Below, one piece after another: positions 10,562 through 39,200 of a DNA stretch of 64,000 nt (the first letter of the stretch is position 1; every line of letters starts with the position of its first letter). The notes under the pieces are model-generated. The model had not been told where the DNA came from and did not search any database. It saw only the letters and a program-made list of their open reading frames with translations. The DNA is from Phoronis australis (Eukaryota; Animalia; Phoronida), in assembly GCA_002633005.1 (NCBI GenBank), contig NMRA01000804.1, forward strand, positions 1-64,000, written 5' to 3'. A program made the translations under genes and the position numbers.

Positions 10562-11681
10562 TCACTGTATGCAGCATTCATCCTTCTTTTTTGGAGCAGA
10601 CGGATAAGACATAGGATATCCAACTGGGTAAGCTGCAGTGCTGGACTGTGGCTCATAGGGGTTACGGTAAATTGGCCTCGTAGCCAAGCCAACATTCAAC
10701 CCACTGGCTGTATCCGCAACACTCACTGGGTTATTAAGGGAAGATACAGGGGTACCTAACTTGGACTTTCGTGGGGTAATGGCAGGTCTTCCCCCAGCAC
10801 TAAGTGGAAGTGCTGACCTCTGTTGTTGGCTCTGTTCATTACCAAGAACCTCACTTTTGACATTTTGACGACTTAGCGAGGGTGCTAATGGATTTCTTTC
10901 AGGGCTAACATTCTTCACCGTGTGAAGACTAATGGCATGTTCATTCCTGTCATTCAGTAGGGGATGTGAAATAGGGGCATGCGAGGTAAAACGGGTGGAA
11001 GGGGTTTGACTTGGAATTACTTCCTTCACAGTCATTGTAGGGACATCGGACACTGGCCTGGTCGGGGGAGCTGGACCGATTTGAACCGAGTTCCTCAAAA
11101 ACTGGACCACAGGAACGCGGTTTCTCGCAGAACTACCTCCAAGCTGCTGGTCAATCTCTGAGTAAGGTGGTGGCATGTCCCCCACAAGGATATCATGGCG
11201 AGACGTAGCGACCTTACCAGAAACTGCTGCAGAAGTTGCAATGGAGGAAGCGGGTTCTAGCATGGACTCAGACGTCAGCAATGGTGAGTCAGTGATGTCA
11301 TTGACTGTATACTGTATAATATACTCGGGGTAACACTGCTGGCGCTCCGTTGCCATGTAAACAGCAGGATTGGCAAAATCATCCAATACTGTGTGAACAG
11401 ACGATGCCTGTGTACCAGATCCAACCAGACCAAGGGCAACACGGCCCACAAACATAAGCAGGGGGCCATCTGCTTTAGATGGCATTAAACGATGCATGAG
11501 GTGAGACGTTTTAGTAAAATAAACGCCGGAACCCAGGTTAACAAGGCCCTCGAGTTGCGGGCACTCAGACAGGAAGTTGTTCTTCACAATAAAGTTGACC
11601 AAATGTTTGTCACATGACCAACCATAGAAAAGCCTTGCTTCAGTATTAGTGCCGCTTGTCTGGGAGAGGTGCCGCCGTTTC
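10562..11681 (-). CDS. PARP12: PARP12/ZAP-like exon 9: PARP core (degenerate), low-complexity tail, CaaX
   Basis: EARLFYG...GSGVYF...MFVGRVALG...NPAVY...QCYPEYIIQY; ends KKKDECCIQ*; acceptor tttcttacag. Confidence 0.9.
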
Positions 11682-14600
11682 CTGTAAGAAACGAGAAAAA
11701 ACTGTCAATAAAATGGTTACACAAGTTTCACATTTACGTGACAAAAAATATAAATCACAACTTCTGGAACTTTCTGTGAAATAATCTTCCCGACAATGTG
11801 GACCAACCTGACTCCTTCTACTGACTGAATGCTTCCGTGAAAAATTTGTCCACCTCTGTCGGTGTTCCTATATACACAACAACTACAAGTCCCTGGAGCA
11901 TGGATCACACGACTTAAATGCATGGAAAATTGACTGATAGTGAATTCCAGAAATTGCGATTGATGATCTTTTCACATCTTGTTATTCACCAGAATGAATG
12001 ATATTGTTCAACGTCTAAGCTTTAGATATGAAACAATAGCAGTCGTCAGTTTAGAAGCAGGAACAAAAATTTGTTGAAGAGTGTTCACTGGCCTTTGTGG
12101 ACATCATTGGCCAAAAATGTGTCATCTGTATCCTTAAGTGGGTGACCACCTTAAGTGGGTGACCACCTTAAGTGGGTGACCACCTTAAGTGGGTGACCAA
12201 TGGTCATCAAACGGCGATACTGTACACTCAAGTCCCATCACACATTTACATTTAAACTCTGATACGCTGAAAACCCGTAAACTTGTGATTTTCTCTCTGT
12301 AGCACTGAATCTATGGAAAATATTGGCCTAATTGGGTCTACCTAAAAAGTTTTCCTGTAATAAAACATCCATTTTTACCCCAAGCGACGGTGCGTTTCTC
12401 TGGATGTTTATTACCACAATAACGCCTCAATTATCACAGCTGCAATCAGTATGAACAACTACTGAAGCAAAATGTACACTGCTGGTGAGCTTAAAACTCC
12501 ATAATCTGTCCAAATCATAAGATAACGCAAAATATACCCGACTTAACAAAGCCACTACCAGGCTGCATCACTAAAGGTCAAATAACCAGCCCTGACCTTA
12601 ATTTTGAATGCATTTTGAAGCCACAACGATGTAATGTCAAAGGTCATAAGTTCACAGTATATGCACATTAGTGAAGTGCAAAAAATTTTTATATCTCTTG
12701 ATGATTTCTAGGAAATAAGACTTGAATTCTTGACTTAGGATTCACTCAAGTTGTTGCTGTTCATAAACCATTAATAGCCGATCAACATCATCAACTTTTT
12801 CGTTTTCTGCTGATACCAATCTCCATAATTTACTTAAACGTGGTACATTTTACTTAAAGGTGATACATTTTACTTGAAGGTCATACATTTTACTTGAAGG
12901 TCATACATTGTACTTGAAGGTCGTACATTTTCCAATCACACTAACGGGACGATTTTCTTAACTATGAATTTAAACTTTGCCTTGAGCCTTTTCCTAGTCA
13001 AAAAATGTCCACTGACATCCTGCTCCCATTTACCCAAATTGTGAGCAATTAAGTGTTACCTGTCATAATCTCTCCACAGTTGGCTGTTAGAGATCTTCTG
13101 AACTTCTCGTATTGTAACCATACCAGCCGGCATGGATTCATGAAACATGTCACGTATTTGCCCAAACTCTTGCTGTTGCAACATAGAGAGAGTGGCACCT
13201 TCATCTCCATCATGGAACACAGGGTCAGGATAGCGTGATGTGAATGGAGCAGAGACAGTTGAGGCTGGAATGACCTGCTTGACTCTCGTGCTGACAGGCT
13301 CTGCACTGGTCAGTAAAGACGGACTGGTCAGTGAAGCTGAACTGGCCAGTAAAGATGGACTAGTCAGTGAAGGTTGACTGGTAAAAGAAGGTGGACTGGT
13401 CAGTGAAACCTGCTTCAGAGCACCAACAATGCTTGGCTGAAACACGTTAGACGATTCCCCTCTGCAACAGATATACATTCACTATAATAATTTGAAAACT
13501 ATAATTTGATCACAGAACTAAAGTTGGTCACCAAGTGTGAAGTTCACATGGATTGTTATAGATGTTCTGCATCCTTGCAAGACAGAAACTATTAACACAG
13601 CAACTTTATAATTACTAGTCGCATTTTCATCTTCAGTGCCACTTTGGATAAAAGATAATTCTAAAGTTGTGTTCAATTCTTGCTTAGTTAAAAAATAATT
13701 ATTTATGATCAACCGTGGCATCACAGAAGGAAAATCTATAATCACTTACTTTATACTAAATATATTTGTTCCCACTACCATGTTTGTACTTTGCCTCCAC
13801 CCCCACGTCACACAACAGCCAACCCCCACCCTTCAATGCCCCACCCCCAAACTATACGTTCAGTCTCATCATGCAAATGCATGTACCTTTTCACAGACAA
13901 CATACAACTTGAATGTTTGGCTAAGTTCAGGTATATATACACACACCGTGACCCCTTACTCGCTTTCCCACTCCATTGCTACACCGTCACACTCACCTTG
14001 CAAGCTCCTGTACCTCTTCAGGACTCACATACAGTGGTCGGCTGCGTATAGGCAGGCGTGTACCTGTCTCCTCGTGCAAGAAGTACATCTCCTCAAAGTT
14101 CACCTCATAGTGGTCGCCATCTGGTGAGCGGAACTTGTACTTTGCCTGACCCTCAGCATACTTCCTCTCCAACTCTTTCATAAAGGGACTACCTTCGTCT
14201 TCCTGTATTAATGACACTTGGGTAAGCGCACTATATATATATGTATATCATGGTTTATGTCCACACAGAACCTGGTTGAGTAGATAAAATTCACAACAGC
14301 ACCCCCTTTGAGATTATTTAGTAATCGTTGGTATTTCATACATACTTGACTATGTGCCAATTTATTTCTCAGAAATTGACCTATCACAAGCTCAATCCCA
14401 TGCAATAAGTCAACAAACAAACAATAAGTTTTACCCGATGTGTCTATTGTCTGGTAAAATGGCGGCTTGGAAACGAAGGTGTGTCAAGAATGCATCGTTC
14501 TGCTTCATCCGTTAACCCGTCACTCAAAATCCCAGCGATGATTCATTGGCTGTTCAGATTCTGATGAAACTTTAAGATATGATGCTGTTTTCTAAAACGC

Positions 14601-17600
14601 TTTTAAATTGCTTTTAAATGTTCTACTTTTGCATGTGGGGCTATAAAAAATTATAGGGATTTTATAATTCCCTAATCATATCAAACAAAATGAAATTTAA
14701 TTTCTCCACTTCTCAAACTAAAACGAGAACAACACACAAGGTTGAAATATGTCCATGACTTCAACGCGAACAATGTGTTTCTAGGTGTTTTTATTAGTAT
14801 CATAAAATGGCCACTAGATGGTGCAGAATACCTCAAAAGCATCCCAAAATGGGAAGATGTCGTAGCCTTTCGGCAAACAGAAAGCTACTTGCTATATTTC
14901 AAGCAAATCAGTACTTGATTACAGAGGCGAACATGAAAAAACAAATTTCCATTAGGAAAAAAGCGACAGTTCAAGAAGTCCATCTAATGGGAATACACTT
15001 TCCAGACTTCCAAAAGATCTTGCTTGGGGGCTTAAGGAGAACCGCAGATACAAAAACTTTCACCAGTGGGCAGCAGAGTGGTTGAATTTCCACAATGAGC
15101 CTCTTAACGGTTAGGCGAATACATAAGGAGATGACTCCAAAAATAACAAAACTGGCCACTAGGTGCATATCTTAAGAAATGAGCGTCTTCCTTGTTAGCG
15201 TATTATTCACAACAAGAAGCTAGAGAGGCAAACATAAAAACAAAAATTACAACAAAGGAGCACAGCGGTAGTCAGAACAATCCAAAAGTCTTAGGCAACC
15301 ATAGTCTCATTTATAGTACAACACTTGCAAAGTTTCACGAAGATCCTTCAAAGGAGATACAGAAGAGCATGTAAAAAAAGACAAAATCACCACCAGGGGG
15401 CAGCCATGGTCTTTCTATCAGGAACACATTTGTCAACTTTTTCAATGATCCTTTAAGTGACTCATTTGATAAAGAGGCAGATGCTAAAAACAAACTCGCA
15501 AAAATAAAAATGTCCACTAGGTGGTGGGAAAATACATCAGATCTGTACAAAAATGCAAGAGCAATGTCATCACCTTTACAGAAATCTATTTGCCAAATTT
15601 CAATCCAACAATCAACAGAGATATAGAGGCAAAATGAATGCAAGGAAAATAAAATTCCCACTAGGGGGCACAGCCGTAGTCGGATTATTGATCTGAAACA
15701 GGTCATAATCCGTCGTCAGTTGACAGGAACACATCAGCAAAATCTCACAGTGGGTTACGAAAACACAGCCATTGACTCAAAAATGCCACTAGGGGGCACC
15801 AAAGTAGTTAAACCTTTCCAAACATCAGTGTTATCTGTGGTCTTCTCATCAGAAACACATCTGCAGCCAAATGAATTTTTACAAAGAACTTTCGAGCAAA
15901 TTGGCTGATAGAGAGGCGGCTGCCAAAAACGGACTAGAAACTTTTAAAAATCACCACTAGGTGGCGCAGAAAATGTCATATTGTTAGAAGACAGGACAGC
16001 ATTATCGTTTCCTCAATAAAAAAACCTATTTGCCAAGTTTCATGAAAATCCAATAACAATGAACTCAGAAAATACACAAGAAAAAGTAAAAATATAAGGG
16101 ACACACCAGTCGTTGGATTGATCTAAACATGTCAGGGCAGACACATGCTAAACTATGTAGGGCATGCATACTAATAACCAAACGCATAACAATGGGAATG
16201 TCTCCTTATATTTGGGGACTATTTTAGTTTAGAGGTTATTTCCAGAATTTTAGAAAATCATGTTGTCAAAAGAAGAAACTTTAGTGTCCCTACATAGTAA
16301 AAATAGGTTTGATTTTAATCCAAAGTTTTGCAGATGATCTTGGCAAAGTAAAGAAAGATTTGAATATTTCTTTTAATTAACTCCCATTATCAAACCCATG
16401 ATACAAAATATGCTTTTGTTTTTATCAATTAAACACTGTTTAGGGGTTTATTCACACTAATTCCATTGCCACGCATGTGTTCTTAGAGACTCTCAACCTT
16501 TGACCTCTTCTACCAAGCAAAACAGATACGTTTGAAAACTTGGGATGACAGTGGGCCAAGTGCACCAATATTGCAAAAGATGATTTACAGTCACGACAAG
16601 GAACTTGGGGTTTATTAAACGTTTTTTGCAACAACATTAGTTGTATATGAAACAAATCAACAACTTCCTGTGCTGTCCATAGCTATTAGAAGATCAAGCT
16701 GAGCAGAGCTTCAGTTTTATGGACGATTCCACCAGCAGGGTGTTAACGTTTGTTACAGTGTGACACACTGACGACTCACACCTGCACCTGGCATGACCAA
16801 GTCTATATACTTCTGTATCAAGACATATTGAATGGGAAAGTGCTTCTATTAGCCACGATTGGGTGAATTTGAAAGGAACTTCACCAGATTTAAAAATTGG
16901 CACCAAAAGCAGCTTTTACCCTAGACAAGTACCAACCATCTGAGCTGAGCCTGCACGGCTGGAGTAGGGCCACCATACGCTGAAAGCTTTCCGGAAAATA
17001 TATGGCTCACAGTGACTAAGTCACCAACCTCATGTTGCTAGAAGTACCTTTGCAGGTAAACATTGTAACCACAATCAACATTTTTTAAAGTAGTCCTTCT
17101 CTCTGTCAAAGAAATGGAAGACTGAACGTCTTTGATGTGAATGTGCTCAGGGTGAAACAACGGAAACGTAGAGGATTATGGGAGATCCCCCATCTACTAG
17201 CCACGCGAGAGGCAGCAGCTCAGACAGGAACAAGATTGTCCACTTCTGTGCTAAACAATGCTTATCTAAGCCAAACTTGAGAGGACTGATAAGAGTTAGG
17301 TAAACACTGTTAGCTAAACAAGTTAGAAGAGGGTAGGACGAGCGCAGGAGAATTGAAAAACAGCACAAGATCAACAGCTGAAATTAAGTGGCGCAACAAA
17401 ATGTTGCAAAAAATGGAGAGGATCGTCATTAAAGGAAACAGCAGCAGCGTTTCTGAGATGTCACCTTGAACGCTTATATCCAATAAACTGTGGTATTGGT
17501 ATCGTTTTACTATGTACCTTGCTTTTTTGCAAAATTTTACTTCACGGACATAGCCACATGACCTAATATATGTCAGATTGGAAAAATGTTAAAAATCAAA

Positions 17601-20600
17601 TTCCACAGGATTAATTTATGCTTTCACAAAATATACACCTTGACTAAGTTAAACAAATTAACCAGGAATAATATACACCTTGACTAAGTTAAACAAATTA
17701 ACCAGGAATTTCTTAAAGATTGCATCACAAATATTACCATAGTGACCCTACGTCAAAGGTAAATAAAAGATTTAGATCTTATACTAAAACTTTGATACCA
17801 ACACGACATAAGTGTAACCTTACCCCTTTCCATTCGCCATTTGGCAATCCATAATACCAACGCCAACGGGTCGAAAAGGGCGAGTTATCTTTGTCTGGGT
17901 TGAAAGGAGGTGTTGACAAGTGACGGATTTCAAATACTTTTACTTCACCACTTCTTTTGTCACAACCAGTTAACTCCATGGAATCAAAGGCAATTTTACA
18001 ATCACCAAAGAAAGGAAGTGGTTCTCTAGAACACATTCAAACGGAAGAGTCAAACTTAGAGCAAGAAAGCAGAAAGTATCACATCATGGCGAATACATTT
18101 AGGGGCCAGTTAACTCACACCACAAGGTGTAACTGAACTCAAGGTAATTAGTTCCCGTATTCAGATCCTGAACCATTACGGAGATGAAGCGCGCTGGTGG
18201 GGAGGATATTCAGGCATGCATGACATCACTAATGGACATTAACAAAGTTGGATGGAGCAGAGCAGTTTCAGAAGAACAACAGTTCTTCACACAGCACGTA
18301 ACATCAAACAAAGAAACATGAATCCAGCTCAACATCCAAATTTAACAGCGGATTTGACTTATGACACATACATAACAATTAAAAAGATTTGAGTATTAAT
18401 TATCACAACCTATAACCAGGATACAGCAAACAATTAAGTCACCTTTGAGACTCGGACTTGACAGGGAAAGTCAGGTTCAGTTTGAGAATGGCTGGATCGC
18501 AGAACTTCTGCTCCAGAACACAGCACCAGTCTCCCTCAAACAGCTTCCAAATGCTCCTCTGATTCACTGTAGTCTTGTATTGCCAGTAGTACGGCAGTTC
18601 ACAATGATGGTTGTGACAGTCAAGGGCACTGGAGACAAGCAAGAGAAGGAGTACAATAGTGATGCTTGTGACAGTCAGAGGCAATGGAGACAAAAAAGGC
18701 AGTACATTAGGGATGGTTGAGGTGTGTGTACACAAGTGGGGTTTACGAAGGCATCCTGCTGGCAGACTTGGGGACGTTATCTGTTCATAACTGAGGTGGC
18801 TATGTAAGTATCATCAAGAGAAGACTGCACTTAAAGTCTTAGTAAAACAACTTTCCAGAGAACTTCACAAAATGTTCATACTCTGACCAGAAGATCGTAA
18901 AGCATTCTGACAAAGCTGTTTACATATTTTCTCTGTGATTCAAGAGCTTTCATTGTGTTGCACTCTACTAAACAGTCGAATCATTTAAACGTGCAGGTAT
19001 TTTAGTTAAAATCCATAAGCACATAATCCTAAAATATGGCATAGCATCCTTTTAAGCAGAACAAACAAACAAACAAACCAACAAACAGCAAATACACTCA
19101 CTAACACTTGTTACTCAGAAAATCCACACAGATGTCTCTGAAGTCATCATCATCATACACACGAACTTCACAGTTATCGTCATCAGAGTCTGTGCCCTGC
19201 CGTTTCATGAATGAAGAGAAGCCACTGTCAGTAGAAATGTTACGATGAAGTTGACTCGTTTTGACACCTTTGGATGAGACCTTATCTCGAGGAGAAGCAA
19301 AGTTGTTGTCAAGATTTGCAAGCATCGAGTCTGTCACATCTGGTTTAGACACCTCAGCCTTTTTCTTTTTCATCTTGTCTTCTTTGGTGGCTGGAAGTTT
19401 CTCCTCTTTCTCCAAAGGTGGTGCTGGTGATGCTGACATAGCCACTTCTTTAACAGATGTGTTAAGTGAAGACGATATTGGTAGAATGACATGTTTGACA
19501 ACTTTTATATCAACTTGGGCTAATCCAAACTTCTTCAAAACATTCATATTTGACTTGATGTTGAGGTCATGCCATTTGCCACATTTCACATTTGACTTGC
19601 AAGTGCCGTCTACATAACCCTGACAGACATGTAGCTTTCCACAAGCCTCAGAACACGAATCTTCGTTATAGGCGGTGCATAGGGCCGGAAAAGAATGCGC
19701 GACGACATACTTAAGATTAACTTTAGACATTCGGTCAAAGCCACGAGTACGGAGAAGCTTTCTTAGTTTGGCATCTTGAAAATCATGAGCTTTTGAACAA
19801 AGCTGATCATGCTCCCTATCTCCAATGTAGTCGCGACAAACATGCAAAAACTTGCAGGTATCGACAGAACAACCAACAGGTGAGTTGTAGTCTTTACACA
19901 ACCAGATAGGGAACTTCAAACAAATCTCCAGCTGTCTATCTGACAGGTAGCACACAAATTCATGAGTGTGATTAAGTAGCCAAGACTGAAAGTTGGATAA
20001 AGTGGTAAACAACTGCAGAACGGCATGGTCCTCAACCAGCACAGAATAGGAGCAGAAACCACCGTGAGACAGCAGCAGTTGCTTGATAGATGTCACTAGA
20101 GTTGCATCACTCTGTTCCTCCACCACTGGTTCCGACGTGACACTCTCTGCATCTGAATCACTGCCACTGCCCAGGACAGAACTCGACAGATTCTCCATGC
20201 TGACGCCAGGCTTCAGCTTCTTTCGGACTCGAGGCGTGCGCTTTGTCTTTTTTGCACTTGCACTGCTCAGTGGCATCTCCTGCTTCAAATCATGCATTGG
20301 CGAAGTACTATCCTCTGATTTCCATCTTACCAACACATTCACCCGCGTGTTTTCGTCTAAAGCGTCCTGGCTAAAACAGTACTCACTTCGCAGACGCATG
20401 CAGTTCTCATCATGATAACTGTGGTTCCTGCTACAGTTGGGCTCCCTACAAACACCCAAGACAAACCAGCGACAGATATGGGCATTCTGACAGTTGATCG
20501 ACTGTCTGCAACCAATAGGTTTATTGTAGTATCTGCAGACGGTGAGAAAACATTGCCTGATGTACTCTAACATTTCATCACTAGAGTTACTGATGATGGG

Positions 20601-23600
20601 CACCTTCCGTGCCTTCAAGACCTTCAGGTTTTGAGGACTGGTGAGCGTATGGCCTAGTTTGCAGGATTCAGTCTTGCATGAACCTCGCTCCAACCACATT
20701 TTGCAGATGTGTAGAAAACCACAGGTGGTGTTGCTACAGTTGCCATTGCTTTTGATGTAAGTAGGACACAGCTTCACTTGCCCCGGCTTCAAAGGTGGGT
20801 TACCATCAGAGGTGGATCTTAAATCTGAAAGTAGAGAGGGAGAGAGCGAAATAAAAATTTGTTAACTTACATAACAATTTGTGAATTTCAATAAAAAATT
20901 AACACAGTTGGACATACGTGTGTGTGTTTGTGTGGATTAAAGCCAGAAATAACTTACCTAAATGCAAAAGCATCCGATTGAGGACCACCGACTTATACAA
21001 ATAAAATAGAATGCAACGTAAAACTAACAAGGAATAGAAACATAACAGTAATTCCTATTTTTATGGCATACGATTAGAACACTGGCATAGGAAATCAGTA
21101 ATGTAAGTACTTCCATAAATAAACAAGTAAATAAAAGTGATCCCTTAGTAATTAAAGGTGTACTACATATTCGCAGACTACAACATGTCTATAAGTAGTA
21201 ACTCATGCATTTTAAGCTATGCATGTATGTGTGCAAAAAATAGCAGAGCTTCTATGGAATTTGTATATGGTTAATCATGGTGGACACTAAGTTGAAGATG
21301 GAGTAGCTTGAGTCAATTTCCTAGTGACTGCTCCTGAAATTCAATAGCGATTCAATACACTACAGCTAGAATTTCTCTTAAGTGCTGAAATTCAATCGCC
21401 ATTCAATACTTTCAATAACCATTCAATTGACTCACAATCAGGTTGGAGGGCAGTGCCAACTGAATTTTCATTCAATAGACATATTCAATAGAAATTCAAT
21501 TTTCTATTGTATCTCAATTAAATCTCAACTGAAACTCAACTTCTCCTTTTCGTATGGGGGATTCTAAGCTAACCCTAAACACTGGCCACCAGGACGCAGC
21601 TTACTTTACTCGGGCAACCCTTAATGTTGAGCCATGCAATGTTTGCACTTGTTCTATTGCTCTATCTGACATCCACTTACCCTGCACACTGTGGTACTTT
21701 CTGATTAAGCTAGACACTGGTGCACTCTGGGGCATCTCGTCAATGTCTCCAACAACAAGCACAGAGCCAAAGATGGTCTTTGTCGCTTTAGTCGTGTCAA
21801 TGTGATACTTGGCTAGAAGTGCCCTGATGTGGGGGTCAGCGAAATTATGGCACTTGCCACATGCCTTGGGCGACTGGCAGGTGCCCAAGGCAAACTTGGC
21901 ACAGACGTGGAGGCGAGAGCATGAGTGGTCGGCACAACCTTCCGGGCTAAAGTTGTAATTCCAGCATACCTGGCCAGAACAGAGAAAAGGATTGGTCTTT
22001 TCTAAGGAGTGTGGTTATTACATAAGTTCATGCCTAGCGTTTACACACGGAGGAAGGTCATGAAACAACAAGCTATCGTAACAAATGAGGAAATGTTTGA
22101 TAAATTCTCTAGTTATACATCTTTTGCCCACAATTCTATAGGAATCGGAGCACTTACTGAAGTGTCGTTTTATTTTGTTGCTTTAGATAATTCGAAGTAC
22201 TGCTTCTAATATGATTTATTTTTCATTTAATGATGTCTCTTGGGGAGCTTAACTCCACAGATGAGATACGCACTCAAGGATGTATTTTTAGACAATAAGA
22301 GAAATGCAGAAAAATTAATCAAACAACGAAAGTCTTATTGTTTTTAACGAACTCTAAACCAGAGTATATGCACTACAGTATGCGAAAACACCTTCAAAAT
22401 TGTGAACGTAACTTCAATAGACAACAATGTTAACATACCTTCAACAGACTGTCTCGGATACAGTCAAGCAGGTGCTCATTGTCGGTGATGGGAACCTTGC
22501 AATGACGCAGTACTTTAATGTTGTGCTCCGTCAGAAAGTTGTGGCACATCGAACAGTGTGGTGGGCAGCGTCTTCCACTCAGCCATGTCTTACACACGTG
22601 CAGGTAAAAACAATCGGGTTAACACAGTTTCCGTTCGACAGATGGTACTGTAGACACAGCTTGGCTTGACTAGGCTGTAGTTGCACATCTGGGAAAAGCA
22701 GGCTCTTTGGCTTCTCTAATGAAAAAGCAGTCAGCATATTAAAGCATTGTCAATCATCAGGGACAATTATGTGTTCTCATAGCCGATACATGTAGATTCG
22801 ATATTTCAAAAAGCTGCGCCCTCTGGTGCAATTCTTGGGAAAGACCGGAGTTGCATTCATGGATGTTTAATGGTGGCTTGTTAGCGTACTTGATGGGAGA
22901 TGCTGGAGCATTTACTTGTGTGCCTGGATATGACTTTACAACAAACAACTAAAAAAGTGCATACAGATCTGAAGCACTATTATAGTGAAAAATATAACAG
23001 TTACTTTGTTTTTTATTAAACTGCTTGTCAGCAAGTTGGAACGACATCCAGATCAAGGCATGATTTAATAGAAGACATTTGATTCAGTGATGGGGTCTAA
23101 CGCTTGCAACATTTTTGTTTGGCTGATTTTCTAAGTGAAAAACATCACTCAACCGCCTGGAGAAAATCAGTTTAAAGATTTAGCAGCATATCTACAAAAT
23201 TTTTGTGAAGGTGTGAAAATATATAGTGAAAAGGGATAGTACACTAAGTATATGTCTTGCAACAAGTTTGACGCCCTTCGTGCTTGCAATTCTAATGCAG
23301 TCTACGTTTGAGCTCGATCTGCGTGACGGTGCACGCTTCAAAAGGCTTGACAGCCTCTTCCATGTCTACTTCTGTCAAATTTTCTGTTTATGAGCCGAAA
23401 CTTGGTTACTCTGGTCAATCCCCGTTTGCAAAGCTACAACTACTTCTTGACTATGTGCACTATGTTTCAGCATATGGGATATTGCCTATTGAATTCAGAA
23501 GTCTATATATTGCTTATTGAATTCAGAAGTCTAAACTGACTTAGCTATCGCCAGGCTGATTGGGTGAAGACTTCATTGACAAATCAGAACGCAGCATTCA

Positions 23601-24810
23601 CACAGACACACCTTCATTTCCAAGCCGCCAGTTTACCAGACAAACAACACGTTGAGGGTTAAAACTTATTGTTTAATTGTTTGTCGACTTTCCGCAAGGC
23701 AGAGCTTGCGATAGGAGACTTGGGCTATTATATGCTCCTAATTATCTACCAGTTGCATGGTTAAACTGTGCCGAACTTAAAAATTTCTCTGTGTAGTCAA
23801 AGCACTTACAAAAATGTTTAAGAATTGTAGAATTTTGAAATGTGTACAAGAAAGATCGTGACTATAAATAACTGGTGAGGCCACTTGTGACAATTACAGA
23901 CATTAGAAATTCAATCTTTTCTTAGTAGGAATGGCAGAATTTGGAAAATAAATTGCTACAAGAATGCAGCCAAAAACAAATTGACACTAGATGGTGCAAT
24001 CTTCACCTTAAGTTCGTCCAATAAGCTAATGGCTTCAATTCTTGATGAGGACATATTTGACAAGATTTTGAAGATCCACCACAAAGAAAAATATAATTGC
24101 CAATTAAGTCAGAGCCTAGTTCATCCAAAAGTGCACAACTGTGCTATGCTCATTGATAGAAGCACAATTGTCAAACTTCATGACGAAGCTCTATATGCAA
24201 GAACTTGGCAGACACTGAGGCTCTATACAGCTGGCACTGAGGCAGCATCGTCGTATACCCATACATCCAGTGCTCCTCTCAATAGGATCACACCAGTCCT
24301 GTTAAATTTCACAAATTTGAGGGAGACGCGCAAATATAACTATAACTATGACGCACTAAGTTGACTATTTTCACAATTAATGGACCTTCAACTTGGTGGA
24401 TAGAGCAGTAGACGGCAAAAGAAAACTGGCCCCACGAGGAGCATATTATGTACGTCGAAGAATTTATGAGAACGATAGCTTTTTGATGAAAATCCGTCCA
24501 TGAAATCCAAGGATACAAGTAAACATAAAAAAGCACAATTGCCAATAGGGACGACACTGGTACTTTCTAATATCAATTAAATGTGCTGTAGCCAGATTAC
24601 TGGTAATTAATCTGTGTCTGCATGACTGGCTCCGCCCTTACCTTCATAGTTGCCAGTACCGCCTTGCCCACCACCTCTAACTCCATAGTTACCACCACCG
24701 CCACGCCCGCCGCCTCTAACTCCATAGTTACCAGAGCCACGTCCATTGCCTCTAATGCCAGAGTNGCCGCCTCTTCCACCATGACTGCTACCGCCCCTCG
24801 TCTGCTCCAT
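10562..24810 (-). CDS. PARP12: PARP12/ZAP (ZC3HAV1)-family CCCH-WWE-PARP protein, whole gene span, 9 coding exons, ~1524 aa
   Basis: Exons 24810-24642, 22715-22439, 21969-21681, 20824-19102, 18628-18443, 18025-17824, 14202-13997, 13461-13060, 11681-10562; all GT-AG with compatible phases once one base is restored near 22617; domain order CCCH-WWE-WWE-PARP as in PARP12/PARP13; symbol marks the family, not proven orthology. Confidence 0.85.
12132..12199. repeat. 17-bp tandem repeat x4
   Basis: CCTTAAGTGGGTGACCA, four exact copies. Confidence 0.95.
12828..12931. repeat. 20-bp tandem repeat x5
   Basis: TTTACTTGAAGGTCATACAT-like units. Confidence 0.9.
13060..13461 (-). CDS. PARP12: PARP12/ZAP-like exon 8: Ser/Thr/Pro linker and start of PARP domain
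   Basis: EFGQIRDMFHESM...IREVQKISNSQLWRDY typical of the PARP domain N-terminus; phase 2/2 splice sites. Confidence 0.85.
13997..14202 (-). CDS. PARP12: PARP12/ZAP-like exon 7: WWE2 C-terminal half
   Basis: ELERKY...YEVNFEEM...TGTRLPIRSRP; AG/GT sites, phase 0/2. Confidence 0.9.
14811..15967 (+). repeat. Degenerate intronic repeat array carrying same-strand CCACYAGRKGG (CTCF-like) motifs
   Basis: Motifs at 14811, 15390, 15514, 15658, 15786, 15954 (weaker at 15060, 15156), mostly 124-168 bp apart. Confidence 0.65.
17629..17709. repeat. ~41-bp direct tandem duplication
   Basis: AATATACACCTTGACTAAGTTAAACAAATTAACCAGGAAT twice. Confidence 0.9.
17824..18025 (-). CDS. PARP12: PARP12/ZAP-like exon 6: end of WWE1 and start of WWE2
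   Basis: IAFDSMEL...IRHLST...TRWRWYY...GEWK; phase 2/0. Confidence 0.9.
18443..18628 (-). CDS. PARP12: PARP12/ZAP-like exon 5: end of 13th CCCH finger and WWE1
   Basis: (ICVDFLSNKC)YALDCHNHHCELPYYWQY...LEQKFCDP resembles the PARP12 ZnF5-WWE junction; phase 2/2. Confidence 0.9.
19102..20824 (-). CDS. PARP12: PARP12/ZAP-like exon 4: CCCH modules 2 and 3 with an HTH-like segment
   Basis: 1723-bp open exon with eight CCCH-type fingers (e.g. CPTYIKSNGNCSNTTCGFLHIC); acceptor ctactttcag, donor ta|gtgagt. Confidence 0.92.
21681..21969 (-). CDS. PARP12: PARP12/ZAP-like exon 3: CCCH fingers 3-4
   Basis: VCWNYNFSPEGCADHSCSRLHVCAKFALGTCQSPKACGKCH; phase 0/1. Confidence 0.88.
22439..22715 (-). CDS. 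PARP12: PARP12/ZAP-like exon 2: CCCH fingers 1-2, with an apparent 1-bp deletion near 22617
   Basis: KLCLQYHLSNGNCV / PDCFYLHVCKTWLSGRRCPPHCSMCH in two frames; 277 bp is one short of the phase-compatible length. Confidence 0.8.
24642..24810 (-). CDS. PARP12: PARP12/ZAP-like probable first coding exon: RGG/Gly-rich
   Basis: ATG 24810, MEQTRGGSSHGGRGG...NYGVRGGG x2; acceptor ends 24840; donor g|gtaagg phase 1 matches exon 2. Confidence 0.65.
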
Positions 24811-36200: not shown

Positions 36201-39200
36201 CTGCATTAATGATTTTAAACATTCAAGTGTTGTAACCCATTTTACTAGTACATTTCTAAATATCGATTAATTACAAAGCTACATTTTAGTTCTAAATTAA
36301 ATTTGTTAAACATCTGATGTTCTTGGTGTGTTCGTTGCAGTTCTGTCTGGCTACTTATCACAATCTCTGTAATTACTACTGACTTAACTTTGACAACACA
36401 GCTATTTCATTGTGACAGATTGCTCTTTTCACATGGGTTATTAATTCTGGCGTAAAGTGTGTCAAAGGTTGGCACGACTTTGCTGACCTGCCCAGTTGAT
36501 TGTGAAAGCTAGATGTTACATTTGCAAACCCTTGGGGTGGTGAGGTGACCATTTCAAACACTTGCAGTTTTTGTTTGTTCTCTTTACCTGGATTCTTGAT
36601 TACCTTAAAGGCGAAGGCAACCTTTTTCCATGTCATTTTGAGCTAAAATAAGGTTGGTTGGTTATCCTAGACATATTTTTCACTTAATTACAGCTTTTCC
36701 TAATTTTATTAATTATTCGTCCGCTTTTCCGGAAGTGACGTTTTAGGAGGCAAGCGCTTCCCGCCAATTTCTTTTCACATAGTCTGACTGTGAGAGCTGC
36801 CGAGTCAGTCATTGTTCTATCTCGGTTGTGTTAAGTTCCGTCGTCGTTCGCTTTCATTTACTAGTCAGTCAACATGCCACACTGTTGCTGCGTACCGGGA
36901 TGTAGTAATTATCGGCTCACGCGCGCTTTGGGAGTGCCTTTGCATCGCTTTCCGATGGATGACACACTTCGCCGTACTCGGCTCGTTCGTGTGAAGAACG
37001 CAGCGTTACCCGTCCACGCAACGTACAAAGCAGTGGAGAATTACCGTGTNNNNNNNNNNNNNNNNNNNNNNNNNNNNNNNNNNNNNNNNNNNNNNNNNNN
37101 NNNNNNNNNNNNNNNNNNNNNNNNNNNNNNNNNNNNNNNNNNNNNNNNNNNNNNNNNNNNNNNNNNNNNNNNNNNNNNNNNNNNNNNNNNNNNNNNNNNN
37201 NNNNNNNNNNNNNNNNNNNNNNNNNNNNNNNNNNNNNNNNNNNNNNNNNNNNNNNNNNNNNNNNNNNNNNNNNNNNNNNNNNNNNNNNNNNNNNNNNNNN
37301 NNNNNNNNNNNNNNNNNNNNNNNNNNNNNNNNNNNNNNNNNNNNNNNNNNNNNNNNNNNNNNNNNNNNNNNNNNNNNNNNNNNNNNNNNNNNNNNNNNNN
37401 NNNNNNNNNNNNNNNNNNNNNNNNNNNNNNNNNNNNNNNNNNNNNNNNNNNNNNNNNNNNNNNNNNNNNNNNNNNNNNNNNNNNNNNNNNNNNNNNNNNN
37501 NNNNNNNNNNNNNNNNNNNNNNNNNNNNNNNNNNNNNNNNNNNNNNNNNNNNNNNNNNNNNNNNNNNNNNNNNNNNNNNNNNNNNNNNNNNNNNNNNNNN
37601 NNNNNNNNNNNNNNNNNNNNGCGGGAAGCGCTTGCCTCCTAAAACGTCACTTCCGGAAAAGCGGACGAGTAATTAATAAAATTACGAAAAGCTGTAATTA
37701 AGTGAAAAATATGTCTAGGATAACCAACCAACCTTATTTTAGCTCAAAATGACATGGAAAAAGGTTGCCTTCGCCTTTAATTTTGCCATCTTGAATGCCC
37801 GTAATTGTGTTTGCCTAAGTCAATATTTGTGCTGCTATTTACTGCGAATTGTTTGCGTTAACACTAATCTCTATGGGGAACTGTGTGCTTAAAGAATGCA
37901 ACAGTCAGTTATAGAAGAGACATTATTTTATTAATTTAAACTTATAATCTTACAGTTTGGGAATTGATAGGTTTACAAAAACTGTCGTGGAAATCAAGGT
38001 AGTTTTTAAGACATGTTTGTGCTTTGTGGATCATAACTGGGTCTCATCTCGAAGTTGTTTATGAATTCTCATGGGCCTTTTATTCAAGGCTTTGTGCATA
38101 TATTTGTGTTTTTTTGAATCCTTCCTACTGGATATGATCAAACGTAATCCATTCTAGAGGATGTTATTCAGTTCCCATTCCTTTGTTGCAGGTTCTGAAC
38201 CCTGACTCTGAGTTTCACACCAAGAACCGGTTGTCCAAGCCAGACAGATTATACTGGGAAGACAAGCTGGGGCAAGGGAAAACATTTGGGCAAGGCACAT
38301 CCAACGGATGGTTGACTAACTTTATCAACAGGGTGCGTTACTTGTCATTAGTCTTTTTGCATCCATTAGAAGACAATTTGTCATTATTTTTTTACCTCAA
38401 TACAGCGCCATCTTTGTGGCTTGACCCTTTGTTTTGGTTTCTGATTGCAGCGAGTTCGTGTTGGTAATTACCCATGACGTAATCACAGCACGAATGTCTT
38501 TGAATTTGGATTGTTTTTAACTGAATGCCGAATTCGCTGATGTTCATTTGATGTATTTCATTTCAACTTGACTTGTGTGACACTTAAAATTTTATATAGT
38601 GTAATGTGATATTATTTAGCGGAGCATTTGCGGTGGCATTTAGTGCTTGTAGGGACTCTATTCCAGCTGAACGGTGTCACGTTTTTTCATTAGAAGTTAT
38701 TGCGTGTTGATGGACTTCTTGAGAAGCATCAGCTGATCTCAATTTGGAGACAAGTATCATGATCACTGTGCATTAGATTCTTGCTACAGTTTTGGATTAT
38801 GTAGCACTAACCTTGGGGACTTCAAGATGTTGCCAAGGTAGTAAGTACGGTTGCCATGGAGATGGTTCACAAATCATGGTTTTGGGGTAGAATTTGAAGT
38901 CAGTTTTTAACACTTCTGAATTCCAATTCCAGTGTATTGCGTATGGCATCAGTATGTTTATTTTACTTTATTTTCAGTTTGCCTATAAGGATGGATTCAG
39001 TCATGTTGAGCGCCACCTACGGGCCGAAAACCTTGACTTAGATGTAAGCATCAATTATAGATTGCTAAACTTAATATTCACATTGGTTAATTATACAAAT
39101 GATTTGAAACAAAACTTTATTTAACGTGCATTAAGGCCAGTGTGCCTATATCGGAAATAATGGATTTATTTTCAAAGACCGTATAATGGTTAAATTCCAT

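Follow-up and report, generated by a model that had tools for sequence, protein, structure and literature searches.

Human ZAP-L (PARP13, ZC3HAV1) and vertebrate PARP12 each carry a single four-finger RNA-binding module; what would a related protein do with three? A 64,000-nucleotide stretch of the phoronid Phoronis australis genome (assembly GCA_002633005.1, contig NMRA01000804.1, positions 1 to 64,000 of the forward strand; hereafter the window) contains such a gene on its minus strand, encoding a zinc-finger PARP protein with three copies of the module. We propose, with a probability of roughly 0.55, that its product is an antiviral RNA sensor anchored to membranes and without catalytic activity, predicted from its sequence to be multivalent and not specific for the CpG dinucleotide. 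The locus is one case of a recurring invertebrate pattern, not a one-off.

The gene model comprises nine exons running from 24810 to 10562, with AG/GT ends wherever checked, and its 1515 codons contain only the terminal stop once one unknown base is added at a gap in exon 2. The predicted protein begins with a Gly/Arg-rich N-terminus (26 Gly and 7 RG within 56 residues of exon 1), followed by module 1, module 2, a linker, a winged helix, module 3, another linker, finger 5, WWE1, WWE2, the PARP domain, a Pro/Ser-rich tail and the final residues CCIQ. Pfam family PF25261 is matched by exon 4 (E 7e-14, three stretches), exon 3 and exon 2. In order of transcription, the features are:

24642..24810, minus strand: exon 1 (coding part), Gly/Arg-rich N-terminus, phase-1 donor, with RNA depth on the expected strand
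22439..22688, minus strand: exon 2, fingers 1-2 of module 1
22615..22616, minus strand: 1-nt assembly gap, a C run one base short, shifting the frame inside finger 1 of module 1
21681..21969, minus strand: exon 3, fingers 3-4 of module 1 and linker, phase-1 donor
19102..20824, minus strand: exon 4 (1723 nt), module 2, linker, winged helix, module 3, linker and start of finger 5
20421..20768, minus strand: module 2, four CCCH fingers without winged helix, sister of module 1
19905..20108, minus strand: winged helix-turn-helix before module 3, like the ZAP N-terminus by structure model and fold searches
19569..19898, minus strand: module 3, four fingers, finger 2 being C-H-C-H
18443..18628, minus strand: exon 5, end of finger 5 and start of WWE1
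17824..18025, minus strand: exon 6, end of WWE1 and start of WWE2, pocket Trp retained
13997..14202, minus strand: exon 7, remainder of WWE2, Phe for the conserved Gln, acceptor picked by reading frame
13060..13461, minus strand: exon 8, Ser/Thr-rich linker and start of the PARP domain
10562..11681, minus strand: exon 9, PARP core, Pro/Ser-rich tail and stop codon
11626, 11521 and 11362, minus strand: PARP triad Y-Y-V, in exon 9
10565..10576, minus strand: C-terminal CaaX-type box CCIQ after a short basic run, with RNA depth across the gene end

Thirteen fingers were found, twelve of them as six finger pairs (residues 68-181, 256-371 and 546-655) and the last (residues 802-819) directly before WWE1. 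All four ligands are present in every finger when the exon 2 base is restored, finger 2 of module 3 being C-x8-H-x4-C-x3-H. An earlier reading made from the letters alone (the sequence-only reading) had proposed this layout: a triplicated module, a thirteenth finger before WWE, a C-H-C-H variant in module 3, a module 1 split by an intron, and modules 2 and 3 together in one 1.7-kb exon. The gene model bears it out on each point. Where that reading had exons 2-3 aligning ‘almost residue for residue’ with exon 4, the copies are indeed colinear and score above shuffled sequences, but modules 1 and 2 are identical at only 56 of 139 positions (40%), modules 1 and 3 at 39/137, and modules 2 and 3 at 37/134. 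The corresponding alignment scores are 264, 134 and 106.5, compared with 80.5, 69 and 64.5 for the best of 300 shuffles that kept Cys and His in place. Modules 1 and 2 are mutual best matches and sisters in a module tree (97/93), in agreement with the internal duplication suggested previously. We rejected the possibility that the repeats are an assembly duplicate: the DNA of exon 2 matches that at the beginning of exon 4 in only 121 of 230 aligned bases (score 108; best shuffle 82), compared with 90-98% in the duplicated blocks of this window, so the duplication is old.

With introns 1 and 3 both in phase 1, module 1 (exons 2-3) forms a frame-symmetric cassette. The intron inside it (21970-22438) is phase 0 and lies two codons ahead of the first Cys of finger 3; human ZC3HAV1 presumably has one at the matching site, in which case module 1 would be the copy with the ancestral intron.

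Among the three modules, only module 3 is preceded by a winged helix, the ‘HTH-like’ segment of the sequence-only reading, whose identity the structure model and fold searches now support. The model of this helix with module 3 has a mean predicted local distance difference test score (pLDDT) of 89.5; its Foldseek matches at E < 0.001 are five ZAP structures only (best 9bgl, 1.4e-8), and a wide fold search places ZAP 3u9g first (Z 9.1, root-mean-square deviation (rmsd) 4.5, 126 aligned). The module 2 model (pLDDT 91.3) also finds ZAP 3u9g as its best match (Z 6.5, rmsd 11.2, 129 aligned), ZAP being one of just two among 48161 chains at Z >= 2; the high rmsd means that the relative position of its finger pairs differs from that in ZAP or is uncertain.

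Are these exons joined in one transcript? Three RNA runs of one study (X6, X7 and X8) show low, even depth over the gene, and transcript contigs (X5) and a DNA run (X1) were also available. Splicing of exons 2-3 to exon 4, on which the triplication hinged, is supported by 18 reads at the exon 2-3 joint (11+1+6 across the three runs) and four X6 reads at the exon 3-4 joint, the latter with 12 letters between, the number predicted by the model. The exon 5-6 joint has 34 reads (12+10+12), and the exon 7-8 joint has 14 (4+7+3) plus an X5 contig. These four joints are the ones among the read rows listed, and joints 1-2, 4-5, 6-7 and 8-9 come from the gene model; the matches of X5 contigs end at 19102 and 13059, beyond which the contigs carry additional letters, as expected from splicing. 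Two additional forms were considered and rejected: an extra exon inside intron 1, where stop-free stretches exist but RNA depth at 22840-23353 is near zero, and a ZAP-S-like short form made by reading through the exon 4 donor into an in-frame stop directly after it (depth 0.2, 0 and 0 in 18728-18984). Introns 6 and 1 contain dispersed repeats (14390-16060 and 23570-23700) on which many RNA reads from other parts of the genome pile up.

As assembled, exon 2 has 250 nt where 251 are needed; the fingers that the sequence-only reading saw there are present, but their peptides lie in different frames, one base being short near 22615. An extra G at this gap occurs in 8/10 X6 reads, 4/5 X7 reads, 0/4 X8 reads and an X5 contig. 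That the gap shortens a homopolymer run suggests a sequencing error in the assembly; the assembled animal may also carry a null allele, since the reads come mostly from another haplotype. Among the read differences listed, beside 244 and 338 further rows, the expressed haplotype departs from the assembly by 32 non-synonymous and 15 synonymous changes in 47 codons scored, with 7 of 8 codon differences in finger 1 of module 1 being non-synonymous. Between X5 contigs and the assembly the divergence is 8.5% in exon 3 and 0.5-4.9% in seven other pieces. These listed differences hint at diversifying selection on the extra modules. Read differences are dense at 22604-22647 and 20729-20790 (finger 1 of modules 1 and 2), both forms being present in X1 at the latter site (45.6 of 119.6 depth), and a length variant of the exon 1 Gly/Arg-rich repeat (24674-24695) appears in X5 and X1 contigs.

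The remainder of the protein recalls ZAP-L. The CCCH finger at residues 802-819 leads into tandem WWE domains, as indicated by alignment and by a Pfam WWE match in exon 7 (E 1.2e-4). The PARP domain matches PF00644 at E 7.3e-5, below the gathering score, as well as the PARP domains of ZAP and PARP12 in the PDB; the best PDB match of exon 9 is that of ZAP (E 1.5e-8), ahead of PARP12 (5.7e-5). Its triad, Y-Y-V and not H-Y-I, aligns with Y787/Y819/V876 of human ZAP. In a hand-picked alignment, the catalytic His is kept in 32 of 35 PARP rows, and the three without it are all three-module proteins (3/8 such rows vs 0/27 others): the present one, Nematostella (Arg) and Tubulanus (Tyr). Because ZAP-like rows of echidna, platypus, python and frog retain the His, the Y-Y-V common to this protein and human ZAP is most likely convergent, as judged from the alignment. 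In WWE2 the pocket Trp (ZAP W611) is kept, and the Gln of an M-x-Q-x-N motif, which we take to be ZAP Q668, is present in 22/24 rows and missing in this protein (Phe) and Tubulanus. Mutation of ZAP Q668 is reported to abolish poly(ADP-ribose) binding (PMC8853533). A tail of ~245 residues separates the PARP domain from the CaaX-type box.

We place the protein in the zinc-finger PARP family (PARP7/12/13) and not with ZAP or PARP12 proper. The N-terminal module with winged helix of the PARP12/ZAP subfamily is present (three modules, one with the helix), and the Atlas comparison returned the same family only. Three quick trees, built without a full-length placental ZAP row, exclude the protein from a vertebrate PARP12/ZAP clade (Shimodaira-Hasegawa-like approximate likelihood ratio support 99-100); approximately unbiased (AU) tests reject a grouping neither with tetrapod ZAP (p 0.06) nor with vertebrates (p 0.22). 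The WWE+PARP branch is very long (longest or near-longest), its join with Tubulanus was flagged as possible long-branch attraction, and a search for close relatives of the PARP part at E 0.001 found none among 163 candidates, which is weak evidence.

With human ZAP-L the protein shares the winged helix and four-finger fold, the finger 5-WWE-WWE arrangement, Y-Y-V and a CaaX-type end, but it has three modules where ZAP-L has one, lacks the CpG pocket and the WWE2 Gln, and carries a Gly/Arg-rich N-terminus and the long tail between PARP and CaaX. Vertebrate PARP12 resembles it in domain order, PF25261 finger tandems and the lack of a CpG pocket, but has one module, an active H-Y-I triad and no CaaX (PMC8568172). 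Proteins of Nematostella, Montipora, Ptychodera and Tubulanus have the same three modules, WWE, PARP, tail and CaaX-type end, although those of Montipora and Ptychodera keep H-Y-I.

Could the modules read CpG? ZAP contacts the dinucleotide through K89, Y98, K107 and Y108 (PMC8102003), and F144 is also reported in contact (PMC8568172). At the K89/K107/Y108/F144 positions module 1 has K/S/M/D, module 2 K/K/L/Q and module 3 R/S/K/H, and the Y98 loop has 3-4 residues, compared with 9 in human ZAP; K89, K107 and Y108 are kept together in only 5 of 119 modules scored. Alignment with ZAP thus reveals no CpG pocket in any of the three modules. CpG reading is unlikely on these grounds, as both the pocket residues and the long Y98 loop are absent. 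The earlier suggestion of broadened specificity fails if broadening from CpG is meant, while multivalent RNA binding is a reasonable inference from the repeated modules.

Expansion of the module recurs in invertebrate PARP12-like proteins, the outcome that the sequence-only reading had said would lessen its novelty. Two surveys bear on this. The first covers the best 150 of 571 matches to exon 4, a choice that favours multi-copy proteins and includes many fragments: at least four finger pairs occur in 94, at least six in 41 and more than six in 16. Its named top matches are invertebrate, and exon 4 identity to the best matches is ~25-37%. The second covers the best 120 of 850, chosen by WWE+PARP similarity to an amphioxus protein. 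Among its 21 named invertebrate rows (8 of them Branchiostoma), 9 have at least four pairs and 3 have six, whereas 31 of 33 other, mostly vertebrate, rows have two pairs and 2 have three, these 33 being single-PARP rows with at least two pairs (several-PARP rows and those with fewer pairs omitted). Three-module WWE+PARP proteins were named in the anemone Nematostella (XP_001636351.2/XP_032241892.1), the coral Montipora (XP_068694759.1), the acorn worm Ptychodera (XP_070560794.1) and the ribbon worm (nemertean) Tubulanus (XP_074654094.1). Two barnacle (Amphibalanus) matches, P0006 and P0016, carry ten pairs of fingers and match neither WWE nor PARP; another match, P0005, has 13 pairs. The winged-helix profile matched this protein, Tubulanus and, weakly, Ptychodera, being too narrow for a family survey.

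Did these proteins inherit their modules from one ancestor? A tree of 23 modules from 11 proteins (picked from a set of 128 modules; 141 columns, long branches) groups modules within single proteins: M2+M3 of Tubulanus (97/94), M2+M3 (96/90) and M1+M2 (100/99) of Ptychodera, and M1+M2 of Nematostella (97/92). Since sister modules lie within single proteins, those of Nematostella, Ptychodera and Tubulanus appear to have been duplicated separately from those of the Phoronis gene. A single ancient triplication for all three-module proteins was rejected on the first modules (AU p 0.004) and on the second modules (7e-7) alike. Repeated independent duplication is the simplest reading of these sequences; the same trees could also result from gene conversion or concerted evolution inside individual genes.

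The CaaX-type end is widespread as well. In the exon 4 survey, Cys at position -4 occurs in 8/26 matches with a PARP domain and 2/124 without, many of the latter being fragments; in the WWE+PARP-chosen set it occurs in 14/21 named invertebrate rows and 15/33 others. CaaX-type ends occur in cnidarians, echinoderms, a hemichordate, amphioxus, molluscs, a nemertean, bowfin, teleosts and lungfish. Individual matches with such an end after PARP are P0018, P0032, P0033, P0042, P0081, P0162, P0191, P0214, P0216, P0217, P0267, P0287 and P0305. Annotated short isoforms of the Tubulanus gene (P0008, P0161, P0163 and P0164) end before PARP and CaaX, unlike P0162, a contrast resembling that between ZAP-S and ZAP-L. 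On a 24-row tree whose root is not known the trait requires 7 changes, and the box is likely ancestral to the family, with later losses. The origin of ZAP has been told as a stepwise vertebrate history, from RNA-binding fold to helix-turn-helix to a CaaX gained in tetrapods (PMC12204182); CaaX-type ends in invertebrate and fish relatives speak against that last placement. An earlier survey retained five-finger proteins only (PMC8102003).

How might the parts work together? ZAP-L is enzymatically inactive and requires its CaaX box, membrane anchoring adding to its potency (PMC8568172), and ZAP acts through multivalent complexes whose multimerisation raises potency (PMC11685948). By analogy with ZAP-L, the Phoronis CaaX Cys would be prenylated and tether the protein to endomembranes, where three modules and the Gly/Arg-rich N-terminus could grip one RNA at several sites, a single chain thereby carrying the multivalency that vertebrate ZAP obtains from TRIM25 and self-association. 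The target would not be CpG, as the pocket residues are absent, and modules 1 and 2 may serve as variable reader heads. No ADP-ribosylation is expected, and poly(ADP-ribose) binding would probably be poor. Module 3 with its winged helix, together with the presumably dead PARP domain, might be where a partner that causes decay or blocks translation docks, for example an N4BP1-like nuclease: KHNYN is reported to dock on residues of the ZAP N-terminal helix region (PMC11685948), and N4BP1-like proteins occur in molluscs and echinoderms (PMC9888277). A link to immunity comes from Nematostella XP_001636351.2 (P0186), which has three modules and a CaaX-type end and is reported to be one of the genes that 2'3'-cyclic GMP-AMP (cGAMP) induces most (PMC11784840).

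Several points count against an RNA sensor of this kind. The cGAMP induction is second-hand, as a term search of the cGAMP paper's own text gave no match for PARP or ZAP (PMC8713801). In the alignment, module 3 has Arg where ZAP has Gly128, a residue of its KHNYN interface. Relaxed selection could explain equally well why the CpG pocket, the PARP His and the WWE2 Gln are gone, a concern sharpened by the very long WWE+PARP branch, and the codon tally may include a paralogue. For this protein, RNA binding, prenylation, localisation and induction are predictions. Human PARP12, which has the same module, gave undetectable RNA crosslinking (PMC8102003).

That last result also favours a different role, in which the modules, as suggested for PARP12, are mainly protein-interaction or localisation units and the protein serves stress or immune signalling as a membrane scaffold, its repeats multiplying sites for partners and not for RNA. 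The missing CpG-pocket residues fit such a scaffold, as does the reported binding of TRIM25 and KHNYN by the ZAP N-terminal domain (PMC11685948). Yet modules 1 and 2 lack the winged helix, bearer of most KHNYN contacts, the K89 position is Lys, Lys and Arg across modules 1, 2 and 3, and a Gly/Arg-rich N-terminus is present. Stretches of that composition are a common RNA-binding feature. We regard the scaffold as an unlikely, though the least unlikely, competitor. Slightly further down stands binding to cellular RNA (mRNA turnover, granules or transposon transcripts) with no antiviral role. CCCH arrays often regulate cellular mRNA, and the gene is transcribed at a low, even level in three runs with no known infection; set against this are the family's ties to antiviral immunity, including the reported induction in Nematostella, and a pattern of repeated domain gain and haplotype divergence that fits host-virus conflict.

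Least probable of all, in our estimate, is a decaying paralogue whose extra modules and WWE/PARP changes are drift and whose assembled allele may be null. The frameshift in the assembled haplotype, the branch length and a non-synonymous ratio near neutral among the read differences listed are what decay would produce, but restoring one base gives nine exons and 1515 stop-free codons with all finger ligands and the CaaX-type end intact, the expressed reads carry the missing base, and the nemertean protein has the same set of changes. The antiviral sensor remains our preferred account of the gene.

More tentatively, and with clearly less confidence than in that account, the comparisons could mean that invertebrates repeatedly and independently turned PARP12-like enzymes into ZAP-L-like sensors, multiplying the module in at least four lineages and losing the catalytic His in three (in Phoronis yielding the very Y-Y-V of human ZAP), with CaaX and the winged helix ancestral and no tetrapod inventions; the Phoronis protein would then be a single-chain, TRIM25-independent, non-CpG sensor with hypervariable modules 1 and 2. 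Given the spread of CaaX and the repeated multiplication of modules, some of the ZAP toolkit would date from early animals. Natural tandem arrays would also offer a chance to test whether multivalency can replace TRIM25, and what invertebrate ZAP-like fingers target. The convergence on ZAP-L and the wide CaaX spread were not found in the literature searched; triplication itself is recurrent. That search found no description of a multi-module or CaaX-bearing invertebrate PARP12-like protein, although figures or supplements may show such architectures.

Elsewhere in the window, which has a CpG observed-to-expected ratio of 0.57, a long multi-exon gene occupies 28335-64000 on the plus strand, with a UBA domain at its start (PF00627, E 2.9e-8); we take it to resemble USP24. 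Blocks 27650-31124/32336-35842 and 37777-39880/40716-42859 are 93-98% identical and repeat the first exons of this gene, probably because both haplotypes were assembled in tandem. A THAP-domain fragment (PF05485, E 1.9e-4) at 36865-37047 on the plus strand adjoins an assembly gap.

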